NCBI GenBank assembly: GCA_964016885.1
Contig: OZ024741.1
Span: 144,336,001 to 144,400,000 of the forward strand
Source of the DNA: Eledone cirrhosa
Lineage: Eukaryota
Length of the DNA: 64,000 bases
Direction of reading: 5' to 3'
The translations under genes and the position numbers were made by a program. The notes under the pieces are model-generated. The model saw only the letters and a list, made by a program, of their open reading frames with translations, searched no databases and was not told the origin of the DNA. Below, piece after piece: positions 4,870 through 48,070 of the stretch (the first letter of the stretch is position 1; the number at the start of each line of letters is the position of its first letter).

Positions 4870-5170
4870 AAGTAATTAATACCGTATAAATGGTACAAAG
4901 ACTGTTTATGTAAAATGTATTTCTCAACAGAGTATTGAATACTTAGGAGAAATTCAAAACGAAGAGTGATAAAATTTCAAGCAAAGAGTTTAATTAGGTA
5001 ATGACTTACAAATTTGTTTCAGTATATAGACAAAGCCTGAAGCGCTAATTATAATAATTAGTTAATAATATTACAAAATATATTAATATTATATTAAATA
5101 TATACTGAAACAAATTTGTAAGTCATTACCTAATTAAACTCTTTGCTTGAAATTTTATCATTCTTCGTTT
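4870..5170. mobile_element. PLE-type fold-back element carrying hammerhead 3' halves
   Basis: ~72-bp inverted arms (4958-5028 and 5099-5170), each with GAAA-CAAATTTG-TA; TA-rich flanks on both sides. Confidence 0.6.
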
Positions 5171-6287
5171 ATATATATATATATATATATAGAGAGAGAG
5201 AGATTTATCTAGTCCTTCGCTCAAGATTAATCTATAAGTTTAGATGTCTGCCTTCGTTTAAGTAAATATTACAGTAAGATTTTTAATATAAACAACTACA
5301 AAAAACAATTAATATTAAAACGAAAAAATTATCAATGATAAAAGAAGCGGATGCAACTTTTTTTTTTATAAAGTTATATTCCTGTTTCTTTAAAGAACAT
5401 TTCATTTTTGTTCTATTGTAGGCGAAATAATGCAATGGTTTAATAGGGAAGATATAACTTACCAATTATGTCTCTAACCATGTAACGCTTTTTAAGTAGA
5501 TAACTACAATTGAAAATACTAAAGAAATGGAACCAACAATTCAATTTGAAAGTCGTCTACTTATAGTGACAGTGTATTACTGGTACTTTATTTTATCGAC
5601 CCCGTAGCGATGAAAGGCAAAAATGCAAATGCTTAAAATTTAAATTGCCTTAATTCTATCGTCTGCTGTTTCATTAAAGGGAGATTCTCGTCTGTATTTA
5701 ATTCTATCGTCTACTGTTCCACTAAACAGATATACCTCCACTATCGTCTCTATTTATACATTTTAACTTATAACTTATACACATTTGATTTGAAATATTT
5801 TATCTAGTCCCCCCTCTCAATATTATGATGATTTCTTTCGAATGAAACAGTTCTAGTCCTGTAGAAGCCATTTATATATATAATTGAACTGAGTTAAAAA
5901 TTCACAATATTTATAATTAAATAAGCTCATATATATATGTGTGTATTTATCTGTTTATTGTATTATATATAATGTGTGTATATACAGGATGTCCCCCAAA
6001 AATATATACACACTTCAACAGCATTCTAATAACTATTGCCTGTACAGGTAATCAAAGTGTCAATCGAATGTTAGTTTCGTGTTTTAACAGTACAAATTTA
6101 CAATACACACATAAAACCAGTGTATATACATACATGAGTGTGTATACACATACATGAATGTGTATATACAATATATATGTATATATATATAGACACATAT
6201 ATTCACGGTGCAACGGAACATTAAAATATAGATGCGGGGGGGGGTGTATATATAGGGGCGCTGGGGATAAAGGAGTGTAAAGCGTAA

Positions 6288-7125
6288 GTGTGTAATTGAT
6301 ATATTGAAGGAGAGGAGCGTGCAGCGATAGAGTAACAAATATATAGAGAGGGGGAGAGATGGTATTGAAGGGGAGGAGTGCAAAGCGAAAGAGTAAGAGA
6401 GATATATATAGAGACGGAACAGATAGAGAGAAACAGGCGTAAGTAACAGTGGAAGAGATATAGAGAGAGGGGGGAATAAATAAATGGAAATATAAGTGTA
6501 ACAGTATAAGAGATATATAGAGAGGGGGAAAGTGTCAACGTAATGTTAGATACATCGTGACATACCTAGAAGTTTCATATCTCTCTCTCTCTCTCTCTCT
6601 CTCTCTCTCTCTATATATATATATATATATATATATATATAGATGCTAGTTAAGAATTTCACATTTGTTATCAGTCAAAATTATATTGTCCCAAAACTGA
6701 ATAAATTCTTTTATTTTATATATATATATATATATATACTGTGGCACCTCGGTTTACGAGTTTAATTCGTTCCGGCGCGGCGCTCGTAAACCGAAACACG
6801 TTTAAAGTCAGTTTTCACAGCTACACTATATATTTAAACATATATACAGTGATACCTCGCTACTTGGCGGTTCAACTATCGGTGTGTAATTGATATATTG
6901 AAGGAGAGGAGCGTGCAGCGATAGAGTAACAAATATATAGAGAGGGGGAGAGATGGTATTGAAGGGGAGGAGTGCAAAGCGAAAGAGTAAGAGAGATATA
7001 TATAGAGACGGAACAGATAGAGAGAAACAGGCGTAAGTAACAGTGGAAGAGATATATAGAGAGGGGGTAATAAATAAATGGAAATATAAGTGTAACAGTA
7101 TAAGAGATATATAGAGAGGGGGAAA
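6288..7125 (+). repeat. 244-bp near-identical direct repeat (6288-6531 and 6882-7125), purine-rich minisatellite-like
   Basis: GTGTGTAATTGATATATTGAAGGAGAGG...AGAGAGGGGGAAA occurs twice with only a few differences. Confidence 0.9.
6738..6800 (+). mobile_element. Tigger-like terminal fragment
   Basis: After (TA)n: CTGTGGCACCTCGGTTTACGAGTTTAATTCGTTCCGG...CTCGTAAACCGA with an internal inverted repeat. Confidence 0.45.
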
Positions 7126-44779: not shown

Positions 44780-45100
44780 TGGTTACCTTTGCTCTCGGCA
44801 CTTCTGTAGCTGTTGAACGGAGAAGATCATGTCGATGGTGGAGCGTTCTGACCTAAAACCACACTGCGATTCAGGATATGCTCTCTCAGTGATTTTCTGT
44901 AGTTTGTTCAGGACCATGCAGGCAATGACCTGCCCAAAGATGCTTATCAGTGAAATGCTTCGGTAGCTGTTGCAATCTCTTCTGATAGAGTGTAACAATG
45001 TTGCAGTCTCTCATGTCTTGCCAGACTATTCCCTCCTCCCAGGACCGACAGCGTAGTTGCAACAAGTGGCTAAGTAGAACTCCCTTTGCACACCTGATGC
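44780..45100 (-). mobile_element. RTE-clade LINE RT fragment
   Basis: DCNSYRSISLIS...YPESQCGFRSERSTIDMIFSVQQLQ.KCREQ. Confidence 0.85.
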
Positions 45101-45297
45101 AACCAAGTCCAACTGCTGATCATTTTATACGAATGAAACAGTTCTAGTCAATTTTTACATAACAAAAAAATGCGTATACTCTTACTAATATATTAAGTAC
45201 CATTTTTAACTGTGTTTCCCCTCCTACTGCGACGCAACTCGGAAATCTACATCTCTCTCTCTCTATATATATATATATATATATATATATATATATA

Positions 45298-48070
45298 TAG
45301 AAGGATTTAAATGGATACAGTTCAGTTAAAAGGAATTTATTGACACATGTTTCAATAACAGTTACATAACCTGAAAACAGCTGCTATCTACAAAGTATTA
45401 GTTATGCAGACATTCAATATTTTAATGTTATTATCAACTGTCATTTCATCAGAATAATTTTATTGAGAACCTGTTTGGCTTTGGTTTTGGTTTTTATAGA
45501 GAATATTAGGAGGGATGGGTGAAGTAGTTAGAAGAATAGTTAAGGGAGCGGTTTTTTTGATAGCAATGAGAATTTTTGGTGGCAGTGAGTAATTAGATTT
45601 GACATTTTTATAGAATATATTATTTGGCGTTGGTTATTTTTCTAAATCTATAGAAGGATTAGAGATAGTATAGATATGCATGGTTGGTTTTGTGTTTGCA
45701 CTTAATTAACATTCAGACTTAAATTTTTCTTTCAAGTGTACGTATCCTTTCGCCCACGCTTTTACACACAAACATATATGCACACCTCTACAAAATACAT
45801 ATACTCACATACACATACTTACATGCTCATACTTACATATATATATACGTGCACATACATATATATACATATATATACATATATATATGTACATACATAC
45901 GCATTCATGTGTATACATTTTCATACTCAACTTATCTTTATATACACACGTATAGACACACACATACTTCTGTCTATGTGTATATATATATATATATATA
46001 TATATATATATATATATATATATATATATATATATATATAAACACTTTAATACATGAATACACATACATCTAACTATACACATCAAACATATATATATAT
46101 TTACTTATTTATATACATTTTCACATATATATACATACTTATGGTCGCTTTTAGACACATTCATTATAGCATATTCGCACCTATTCTCATCAGCATATCT
46201 ATCCATTATTAGTGTGGTAATTTAAGGTTATTAATATACATATATATGTTGAGAAGAGATTGTTTTTATATTTTTCTAACTAGATTGAGGTTTATATAGT
46301 TGGGGGGATGTCCCTCTTTTATGTAATATTCAGCTTGTAGTGGGGAAAAAGGGTTTTAGTTCGGTGACGGCAGAATAATGTTCGTTCAATTCTGTTATTA
46401 AGCAATTTCTTCTTGTGTGTGATTATGTAATAAATCTCAAACTTTTGATCGCTATCCCTGAGCGTCCAAGCTTTTTCTGCTAAAGTTGTTACATTTCTTT
46501 GGCTCTGGTGTTTTATTGAGTAAGAATGCCTATATAATCGAGATTTAAACGATGTTGCCGTTGATCCCACGTAATACCATTCGTTGCCTCCGGATTTAAT
46601 GGTACACTTATAAATGATATTTTTTCCAGGCAGTTATCGCCGAGGGAGCAGTTGTCAGGATAGGTGCAGTTACAGTTGTGTACGTTGGGTTTACTCAATA
46701 AAACACCAGAGCCAAAGAAATGAAACAACTTTAGCAGAAAAAGCTTGGATGCTCAGGGATAGCGATCAAAAGTTTACCCTAAAATGGGAGAAATTAGCTA
46801 AAACCCAAAGCTTTTCCAGGAGCCAAAATTTCTGCAAATTGTGTAATCTTGAGATTTATTACATAATCACACACAAGAAGAAATTGCTTAATAACAGAAT
46901 TGAACGAACATTATTCTGCCGTCACCGAACTAAAACCCTTTTTCCCCACTACAAGCTGAATATTACATAAAAGAGGGACATCCCCCCAACTATATAAACC
47001 TCAATCTAGTTAGAAAAATATAAAAACAATCTCTTCTCAACATATATATGTATATTAATAACCTTAAATTACCACACTAATAATGGATAGATATGCTGAT
47101 GAGAATAGGTGCGAATATGCTATAATGAATGTGTCTAAAAGCGACCATATGTATGTATATATATGTGAAAATGTATATAAATAAGTAAATATATATATAT
47201 GTTTGATGTGTATAGTTAGATGTATGTGTATACATGTATTAAAGTGTTTATATATATATATATATATATATATATATACACATAGACAGAAGTATGTGTG
47301 TGTCTATACGTGTGTATATAAAGATAAGTTGAGTATGAAAATGTATACACATGAATGCGTATGTATGTACATATATATATGTATATATATGTATATATAT
47401 GTGTGCATGTATATATGTATGTAAGTATGAGCATGTAAGTATGTGTATGTGAGTATATGTATTTTGTAGAGGTGTGCATATATGTTTGTGTGTAAAAGCG
47501 TGGGCGAAAGGATACGTACACTTGAAAGAAAAATTTAAGTCTGAATGTTAATTAAGTGCAAACACAAAACCAACCATGCATATCTATACTATCTCTAATC
47601 CTTCTATAGATTTAGAAAAATAACCAACGCCAAATAATATATTCTATAAAAATGTCAAAACAACAGATGGGAATCTAATTACTCACTGCCACCAAAAATT
47701 CTCACTGCTATCAAAAAAACCACTCCCTTAACTATTCTTCTAACAACTTCACCCCTCCCTCCTAATATTCTCTATAAAAACCAAACAGGTTCTCAATAAA
47801 ATTATTCTAATAAAATGACAGTTGATAATAACATTGAAATATTGAATGTCTGCATAACTAATACTTTGTAGATAGCAGCTGTTTTCAGGTTATGTAACTG
47901 TTATTGAAACACGTGTCAATAAATTCCTTTTAACTGAACTGTATCCATTTAAATCCTTCTATTTTCTCCGGATTACTTTTGAAACTACAACTGGAACCGT
48001 CGAGCAAACTCTACGTGAGCTGTCCATCTACTGTGTGTAATATTCATATTACAACACTACGGAAAATACT
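45298..48070. mobile_element. Penelope-like element: head-to-head inverted pair of 3' ends (GIY-YIG C-terminus plus pseudo-LTR), ~1.2-kb arms
   Basis: CNC..PDNC.LGDNCL, YYVGSTATSFKSR...H and CKLCNLE...LLN.R.E...CRH on both strands; arms meet near 46691; (TA)n flanks. Confidence 0.9.
45337..45457 (-). ncRNA. Type I hammerhead motif with a 72-nt stem II loop, intact core; the partner at 47802-47922 has CTAATAA
   Basis: Minus strand: TTATT-CTGATGA-AATGACAGTT...(72 nt)...AACTGTTATT-GAAA-CATGTG-TC-AATAA. Confidence 0.8.

Follow-up and report, generated by a model that had tools for sequence, protein, structure and literature searches.

In this study, we examine a 64,000-nucleotide stretch of the Eledone cirrhosa genome (contig OZ024741.1 of assembly GCA_964016885.1, positions 144,336,001 to 144,400,000, forward strand; the window) and relate seven inverted repeats within it, numbered e1 to e7 (Table 1), to the insertion products of Penelope-like elements (PLEs). 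At least five of the seven are probably head-to-head, 5′-truncated insertion units of several PLE families in (TA)n, likely built by twin target-primed reverse transcription. As palindromes they belong for the most part to the known by-products of Penelope-like retrotransposition, mainly that of the Hydra clade.

Inverted repeats, hammerheads and two end positions

The window consists of AT-rich animal DNA with many microsatellites and retroelement debris. A preliminary description of this DNA had given seven inverted repeats of mutually unrelated sequence one common layout, and self-alignment of the window recovered all seven, with arm identities of 85–99%. Their independence held as well, the best of the 21 pairs being matched by 3.5% of shuffles. 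The inverted 5′-truncated copy with a one-sided tail, by which a PLE insertion unit is recognised, was found in 7/7; the tail, already described as an extension of one arm, measures about 43–110 nt overall and about 87–110 nt in e1, e4, e6 and e7. A miniature inverted-repeat transposable element or another transposon with terminal inverted repeats (TIRs) was ruled out, since one arm overshoots the repeat by 43–110 nt in all seven. Of the TA-rich ends reported before, 13/14 do adjoin (TA)n (p = 0.012 for a random non-repeat position to do so), the exception being the left end of e5, which runs into (TG)n. The target-site duplication (TSD) is hidden in the microsatellite, and no empty allele was seen in reads mapped on 40300–41200, a mapping that skips (TA)n bins.

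Each arm had also been credited with a full or partial hammerhead ribozyme motif, which is true of some elements only. A relaxed type I descriptor gave 6 matches in the window, against 0.1 in 200 shuffles, with complete motifs in e4 (both arms), e6 (left arm) and e7 (left arm) and at two sites outside the seven; the strict descriptor retained e4 alone, as did Rfam (Hammerhead_1, 31.7 bits, under the gathering score of 34). The GAAA box is mutated in the right (short, plus-strand) arm of e6 and the 5′ core in the right (tailed, plus-strand) arm of e7. In e5 both core boxes were found, each arm being damaged at one point and lacking stem I; both arms begin at the core, which also appears in loose read ends from organisms A, B and C. 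With a 3′ half-core only in e1, the motif is intact in both arms of one element and in one arm of two, present in parts in two, and missing from e2 and e3, where none was found even with one core mismatch or a U3-A8 core allowed. A candidate in e2 (a spacer hairpin beside a U3-A8-like box) was not accepted, its GAAA box being missing, nor was one in e3 with a long stem III, which has no 5′ core and no hammerhead counterpart in the related end at 19640–19840. Folded in isolation, the motifs do not yield the three-helix form. We regard the hammerhead as a probable passenger of the 3′ end that is for the most part inert here: activity appears unlikely because helix III is weak and the motif would be paired to its antisense copy in a read-through RNA, an argument that extends the parts of Cervera and De la Pena (2014; PMC4209133) drawn on here.

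Two end positions recur. From the predicted cut to the short end the distance is 49 nt in e1, 52 nt in e4, 50–52 nt in e6 and 42–44 nt in e7, close to the four values given previously; it is not universal: e5 has 21 nt, and e3, should its putative site be used, about 16 nt. The second position, absent from the preliminary description, is the tail end, at 142 (e1), 154 (e4), 143 (e6) and 154 nt (e7) after the cut. Two of 13 distinct 3′ half-cores outside the seven lie 40–55 nt from (TA)n (p about 0.02). Published Hydra consensus sequences fall into the same two distance groups, running from cut to end for 30–48 nt in 10/24, 63–153 nt in 13/24 and 355 nt in 1/24 (supplement of Craig et al. 2021; PMC8557442).

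Reads and metagenomic loci extend this picture to whole families. Four read runs were mapped on 40300–41200 at 85% likeness, the counts being of reads and not of loci; one run, X1, is possibly the assembly's own sample. In X7, a reduced-representation run, 1458 reads end in (TA)n at the e6 short-end site (consensus agreement 0.62) and 13177 continue past it into a diverged tail. From metagenomes we took 78 Hydra-type loci, the best of 474 confirmed stretches. A hammerhead lies downstream in 48/78 (35 families by clustering); of the 30 without one by descriptor, many stop soon past the endonuclease and others carry variants that the descriptor missed. Among the 48, eight end in (TA)4 at 32–51 nt, three reach the contig end and 37 run on (the long loci); (TA)4 starts at 72–121 nt after the cut in 8/48. 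Short and long ends are both present within one family, and short ends also occur in direct copies with no inverted partner found within the contig. In six families the short end lies 6–11 nt before the tail hairpin described below, and the distance from cut to short end in these same families spans 21–53 nt. Because the end recurs family-wide in reads and in direct copies, and is held more tightly to the hairpin than to the cut, a reverse-transcription start at the unit boundary accounts for it better than a fold-back stop does.

Clade identity and the tail hairpin

As had been stated for the largest element, coding sequence of this kind lies in e7 alone among the seven, in the form of a broken Hydra-type GIY-YIG endonuclease. 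Its parts follow in the order CxCx5C linker (in the spacer, minus strand, and aligning with relatives), frameshift, two GIY-YIG halves, an internal 75-nt deletion and a C-terminal CxH; the CCHH motif is absent, a single Cys stands between the GIY and YIG halves, and the right arm holds CxxC and CxH around conserved E and N. A HMMER scan gave 505 relatives at E ≤ 1e-3, and in the best 150 of these CxCx5C is present in 50 and CxxC..CxH in 84. The long relatives carry an upstream reverse transcriptase (RT) with Hydra-type motifs, RWK and DKT both being present in P0108 (720 aa); e7 itself is truncated before the RT. A word-indexed protein search found no relatives for the e7 fragment, and Pfam recognised neither GIY-YIG fragment, its GIY-YIG model matching weakly in 3/10 relatives scanned. 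The C-terminal endonuclease-bearing (EN+) PLEs of the Hydra clade share with e7 the CxCx5C linker, the lack of the CCHH Cys pair, and CxxC with CxH; the clade further shares a type I hammerhead near the 3′ end, (TA)n, an inverted 5′-truncated partner and a one-sided tail (Craig et al. 2021; PMC8557442). e7 has both ends in (TA)n and a full hammerhead in its left arm; it differs from the clade as published in its long stem II loop and a 3′ untranslated region (UTR) of about 1 kb. By its predicted endonuclease, e7 is a Hydra-clade PLE, and it appears to be a family other than Hydra-1_Obim of Octopus bimaculoides (PMC8557442, supplement), because the two endonucleases differ by eye. The stubs e4 and e6 contain no open reading frame (ORF); their hammerhead, (TA)n, end distances and tail hairpin, the last a marker derived in this analysis and not a published criterion, assign them to the same clade. 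For e1 and e5 that assignment is likely.

The hairpin consists of GCTC, a variable stem-loop and T(T/A)GAGCAC, starts 34–71 nt after the cut, and was recognised only through comparison of loci. It is present in 27/37 long loci, in 0/8 short-ended loci and in 0.5% of shuffles. In the alignment of distinct instances (24/25), the lower four pairs, which had been selected for, are invariant and are followed by a 2-nt bulge and then by an upper stem, which had not been selected for and is 100% paired with 25 double changes, a result that 0/500 shuffles match, with sequence kinship only partly controlled. Slid registers of the upper stem reach at most 0.30, against 0.80. The hairpin also occurs 1.74–1.85 kb upstream of the endonuclease in 13/34 loci whose upstream DNA reaches that far, and it opens the Hydra-1_Ajap consensus. 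Its presence at element 5′ ends marks the short end as a unit boundary and identifies the tail, on sequence grounds, as the 5′ beginning of the unit that follows in tandem.

A covariance model (R1) trained on metagenome loci only ranks the e4 tail first in the window (13844..13882, plus strand, E 5e-5) and the e6 tail, with a compensatory first pair, second (40658..40695, minus strand, E 0.008); the third match, in e3 (E 2.2), is not significant. By a loose descriptor, variant hairpins lie in the e1 tail from 4950 (minus strand; weak) and in an e5-family stub at 40552 (minus strand). The hairpin is often doubled, about 60–85 nt apart (L058, L061, L064, L073, L076, L007, L008 and L014), downstream of the hammerhead as well as at element 5′ ends. 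Antisense to the e7 endonuclease, 46502–46523 (plus) and 46691–46712 (minus) form a mimic of the hairpin whose end coincides exactly with the inner arm junction, possibly by chance.

Formation of the units

In the scheme that we favour, the RT-endonuclease would nick both (TA)n strands. One target end would prime at the unit boundary and give the short end, and the other would prime 40–110 nt further on and give the tail end, with a read-through or circular RNA as template. Both complementary DNAs (cDNAs) would stop early, and microhomology would link them head to head, in some cases once a short snap-back has formed. Twin priming from two fixed starts is favoured because either arm can be the longer one and because the arms of the stub at 40489–40592, which the preliminary description did not list, do not overlap: an inverted tail is joined there to a cut-to-short-end piece with zero overlap. 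In organisms A and B the e5 family is colinear across this inversion point (opposite-strand joints, 395 X7 reads, four rows). In the metagenomic locus L075 the short arm is the longer, and in L053 the tailed arm.

The layout had previously been ascribed to a fold-back step with a fairly fixed endpoint; in explicit form, a tailed cDNA would fold back and its second strand would stop about 50 nt past the hammerhead cut. Near-identical arms with tiny centres in e5 and e6, the 42–52 nt from cut to short end in four elements and the spacer skew of e1, which agrees with the tailed arm, all suit this proposal, and the fixed end that it invoked is real. As the sole route it is contradicted by the duplication-free stub and by e7: fold-back from the tailed strand cannot make e7, because the spacer encodes protein in the orientation of the tail-less arm, and a strand that lacks the tail cannot serve as template for it. 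The fixed end, moreover, goes with the unit boundary and its hairpin and not with the ribozyme; short ends occur in direct copies, the distance is 21 nt in e5 and 32–51 nt in metagenome loci, and insertion products of PAc, the Poseidon PLE of Anolis carolinensis, were unchanged in vitro by hammerhead mutants (Frangieh et al. 2024; PMC11167929). Simple fold-back predicts a spacer that follows the first-made arm and arms that always overlap; e7, the stub and L075/L053 are fitted better by two primings. We therefore regard fold-back as very unlikely to account for the seven, although the local snap-back in the e4 centre means that it does occur as one joining route. An unlikely but closer variant would have the short-site cDNA snap back, copy itself into the second arm and switch to a separately primed short tail cDNA, so that the arms would not be independent. 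It is suggested by the snap-back and stutter of e4, by tail-only inverted pieces (the stub and an X1 joint at 40672–40859), by 196 molecules that end at AATT on the short-arm side of e6, and by centres that match the short arm in e7 (ORF), e4 (AT skew +0.23/+0.24 vs +0.29) and probably e6, e1 leaning weakly the opposite way. Yet in L053, and possibly in L029, it is the tailed arm that is long and bears the endonuclease, endonuclease-bearing long loci are mostly tailed (27/37), and two primings are still required, which makes self-copying a variant of twin priming. An interim rule tying the spacer to the short arm in every case was given up in view of L053 and of the long loci with tails.

Other proposals concern the source RNA, the template or the data. 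Some ORF-less elements (the e5 family, e4) might be dedicated non-autonomous, retrozyme-like families mobilised in trans, an origin that we consider rather improbable. In its favour, endonuclease sequence is missing from 6/7 elements, more than 1 kb of non-coding DNA precedes the hammerhead in e4, the e5 family is represented by five window copies and by deep read coverage in three organisms, and retrozymes have been proposed as PLE derivatives (bioRxiv 10.64898/2026.07.22.740005). Against it, none of these elements shows a tandem hammerhead array, the 5′ ends are as variable as truncation ordinarily leaves them (X1 joints), and e7 too has its long 3′ UTR. Such an origin would in any case bear on which RNA was copied and leave the mode of insertion as it is. 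For palindromic head-to-head PLE junctions, self-priming with antisense RNA as the template has been published (Arkhipova et al. 2013; PMC3846280). By itself it leaves the two fixed outer ends on sense RNA and the non-overlapping inversions unexplained, RT starts in vitro were mapped on a template of pseudo-LTR (pLTR)–ORF junction RNA (PMC11167929), and we give it very little weight. That the palindromes are assembly or chimeric-read artefacts, a concern raised at the start, is hardly credible. No listed contig spans the 901-nt stretch 40300–41200, but the arms differ by substitutions and indels, the ends coincide with family-wide sites in raw reads of another study, L075 from an unrelated data set is the same head-to-head unit, and short-read contigs contain head-to-head joints with other breakpoints, one joining a tail-only piece to a long arm (individually weak, with sides of 20–29 nt).

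Several observations weigh against twin priming, or against its extension to all seven elements. The twin-priming step is itself inferred. The snap-back of e4 and the 5–7-nt centres of e5 and e6 suit fold-back equally well, the e1 spacer skew (+0.17) agrees with the tailed and not the short arm, and since centres follow the short arm in e7, e4 and probably e6, self-copying of the short-site cDNA may be common, which counts against a pure form with two RNA-templated cDNAs. The earlier attribution to several PLE families is borne out by the e7 endonuclease and the e4 and e6 hairpins; e2 and e3, in contrast, are tied to no PLE clade and fit by layout only. For its part, e1 has a half-core and e5 cores without stem I, and their hairpins (that of e5 in the family stub) are variants found by the loose descriptor, which is unenriched (11 window matches vs 9.6 in shuffles). 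The strict hairpin is missing in 10/37 long loci; at E < 10, R1 gives no match in the stub or in the tails of e1, e2, e5 and e7; and overall folding of the cut-to-tail regions in e1, e4, e5, e6 and e7 does not exceed that of shuffles (z −0.2 to −1.1). Six families supply the distance between short end and hairpin; the joints seen in reads have sides of 18–31 nt at 85% likeness; none of the contigs listed spans 40300–41200; and an inverted partner was found in only 1/48 hammerhead-bearing loci, in short-read contigs that break at palindromes.

With slightly more doubt than confidence, we suggest in addition that the bulged stem-loop of the Hydra clade is a landmark for the RT-endonuclease. The starts would straddle it, one lying 6–11 nt before the stem-loop and the other 40–110 nt past the unit boundary; priming on both strands of (TA)n would build the units, and the hammerhead would set no ends.

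Table 1 Coordinates of the seven inverted repeats and their parts in the window
Feature	Position	Strand	Description
e1	4870..5170		tailed arm − (4870–5028), short arm + (5099–5170)
e1 arms	4957–5028/5099–5170		71/72 matches
e2	10675..10870		53-nt arms, 43-nt tail on left; PLE origin unproven
e2 arms	10713–10765/10818–10870		51/53 matches
e3	11081..11245		29-nt arms, about 80-nt tail on left
e3 arms	11164–11192/11214–11242		27/29 matches
e4 arms	12197–12620/13426–13849		419/424 matches
e4 short (tail-less) arm with spacer	12197..13345	−
e4 short arm hammerhead	core 12281, predicted cut after 12250	−	intact type I; 52 nt to (TA)n
e4 centre	13297..13425		small local snap-back palindrome, stuttered 14-mer, then jump to arm
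e4 tailed arm	13426..13950	+	tail 13850–13950
e4 tailed arm hammerhead	core 13765, predicted cut after 13796	+	intact
e5	14471..14658		5–7-nt centre; left-hand tail reaches (TG)n; high-copy family
e5 arms	14528–14595/14601–14668		58/68 matches, some TA included
e5-family stub	40489..40592		tail 40498–40555 (−) and cut-to-short-end piece 40558–40592 (+)
e6	40600..41017		tailed arm −, short arm +, 7-nt centre
e6 arms	40693–40848/40856–41017		155/156 matches
e6 tailed arm hammerhead	core 40790, predicted cut after 40743	−	intact
e7 arms	45297–46523/46691–47962		1169/1183 matches
e7 short arm	45298..46690	−	includes spacer 46524–46690
e7 short arm hammerhead	core 45452, predicted cut after 45342	−	5-bp stem I, long stem II loop
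e7 endonuclease	46319..46695	−	broken Hydra-clade GIY-YIG endonuclease fragment
e7 tailed arm	46691..48070	+	C-terminal endonuclease part (to 46970), 3′ UTR, hammerhead, tail 47963–48070

Relation to known systems and to the rest of the window

The layout, the (TA)n target, the hammerheads and a tail delimited by two RT starts are already known. In the Hydra clade (TA)n insertion and canonical hammerheads are features of nearly all families; the text and Fig. 2 legend of the same paper describe an inverted 5′-truncated copy beside the element and a 30–40-bp tail, often at one end only, and its supplement lists Penelope-13_HM with a 5′ inverted copy (PMC8557442). The tails of e1, e4, e6 and e7 are longer than the 30–40 bp given there for PLEs generally. 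The same layout is found in a rotifer (PMC3846280), and dual minimal hammerheads on opposite strands, 100–700 bp apart, are reported for Schistosoma (PMC4209133). Together, these reports make the architecture a known one. Its origin is another matter: both PMC8557442 and PMC11167929 call that of PLE inverted copies and tails open.

Among better characterised systems, the Penelope units of Arkhipova et al. (2013; PMC3846280) and of D. virilis (PMC2377424) share the head-to-head inverted copy, the tail on one repeat, and junction palindromes with microhomology; units of this Penelope/Poseidon group differ in a 31–34-bp tail, in visible TSDs and in the antisense self-priming proposed for them. 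In vitro, PAc cuts and extends both strands, two internal RT starts bound its tail, hammerhead cleavage is not needed, and a dimer is predicted (PMC11167929). It shares with our scheme the two starts, AT-rich targets and a start-site stem-loop; it belongs to another clade, its tail lies in the ORF start and not, as here, in the 5′ UTR, and in the sections cited here its inverted copies are not derived from twin priming (Frangieh et al. 2024; PMC11167929). The minimal hammerheads of metazoan PLEs share a short palindromic helix III, an extra stem II nucleotide and U3-A8 variants; ends and tails are not analysed in the sections cited here (Cervera and De la Pena 2014; PMC4209133). Metazoan non-LTR retrozymes are likewise non-coding, with a type I hammerhead and kinship to PLE pLTRs (bioRxiv 10.64898/2026.07.22.740005); they form direct tandem arrays, whereas the window elements are single inverted pairs with motifs on opposite strands, one per arm. 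In print, we did not find the Hydra tail hairpin, long Hydra tails or twin priming behind PLE inversions, though the 2004–2006 PLE papers, Repbase reports and the PAc supplements may hold some of these; the main text of PMC8557442 has 0 occurrences of hairpin, stem-loop or GAGCAC, and the hairpin sits in the consensus sequences of its supplement.

Further copies of the e5 family lie at 5826–5879 and 45116–45221 (plus), one short-ended, the other tailed and diverged. e3 is similar (36/51) to the 3′ end of a GIY-YIG remnant at about 19770–19820. That remnant (18850–19822, plus) is a decayed PLE of another clade that ends at (CA)n; its GIY-YIG with a CxxC linker lies at 19264–19665, and its relative P0151 has an RT. 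The e5-family stub has a counterpart outside PLEs in the inverted, abutting segments that two primings reportedly produce in L1, a process said to go back to Ostertag and Kazazian in 2001; there the internal priming site is said to vary and the arms not to overlap, while here the sites are fixed and the arms often overlap.

Other hammerheads in the window include a full Hydra-type motif (core 11770, 132 nt to TA) in the copy at 11687–11958 (plus), which faces a 77%-identical copy of the same further family at 15301–15574 (minus), and a solo full motif with a long stem II loop at 14722–15040 (minus; core 15029, about 190 nt to TA, no inverted partner). U3-A8 variants lie at 40280–40458 (plus), a region that is multi-copy in reads, and at 11986–12038 (plus), 139 and 15 nt from (TA)n, respectively. 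Stubs with a 3′ half-core at 21490–21590, 21660–21735 and 48086–48150 (minus) are 77, 53 and 50 nt from (TA)n, the former two being repeated four times along with a tandem LINE array. Downstream of a half-core at 6530–6580 (minus), the sequence resembles, by eye only, the published 3′ end of Hydra-1_Obim.

An eighth palindrome (18200–18405; 102/103), centred on (TA)n and with TA on one side, showed no hammerhead, and a 220-nt inverted repeat at 1195–2165 (99%), without TA flanks or hammerhead, is probably a different kind of element. The LINE array (21490–39571) comprises four tandem units of ~3.9 kb, L1/Tx1-like, with ORF1 and an ORF2 truncated at (TA)n in three and, in the fourth, a full ORF2 of 1156 aa. 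At 42082–43348 lies a Tc1/mariner element whose TIRs are 32 nt long, and large inverted pairs of LINE fragments, 5–12 kb apart, occupy 49033–63439. Rfam miRNA matches in the window were set aside as microsatellite and palindrome noise.

In conclusion, the interest of these elements lies in their mechanism, for which the covarying hairpin and the discriminating stubs allow concrete in vitro tests. Dense palindromes in (TA)n could possibly also be a source of double-stranded RNA. The hairpin is a practical marker, by which ORF-less stubs can be assigned to the Hydra clade and consensus boundaries set. If the landmark reading is true, it would be the first clade-wide cis-acting RNA signal for PLE priming, and the twin priming that it directs would be programmed.

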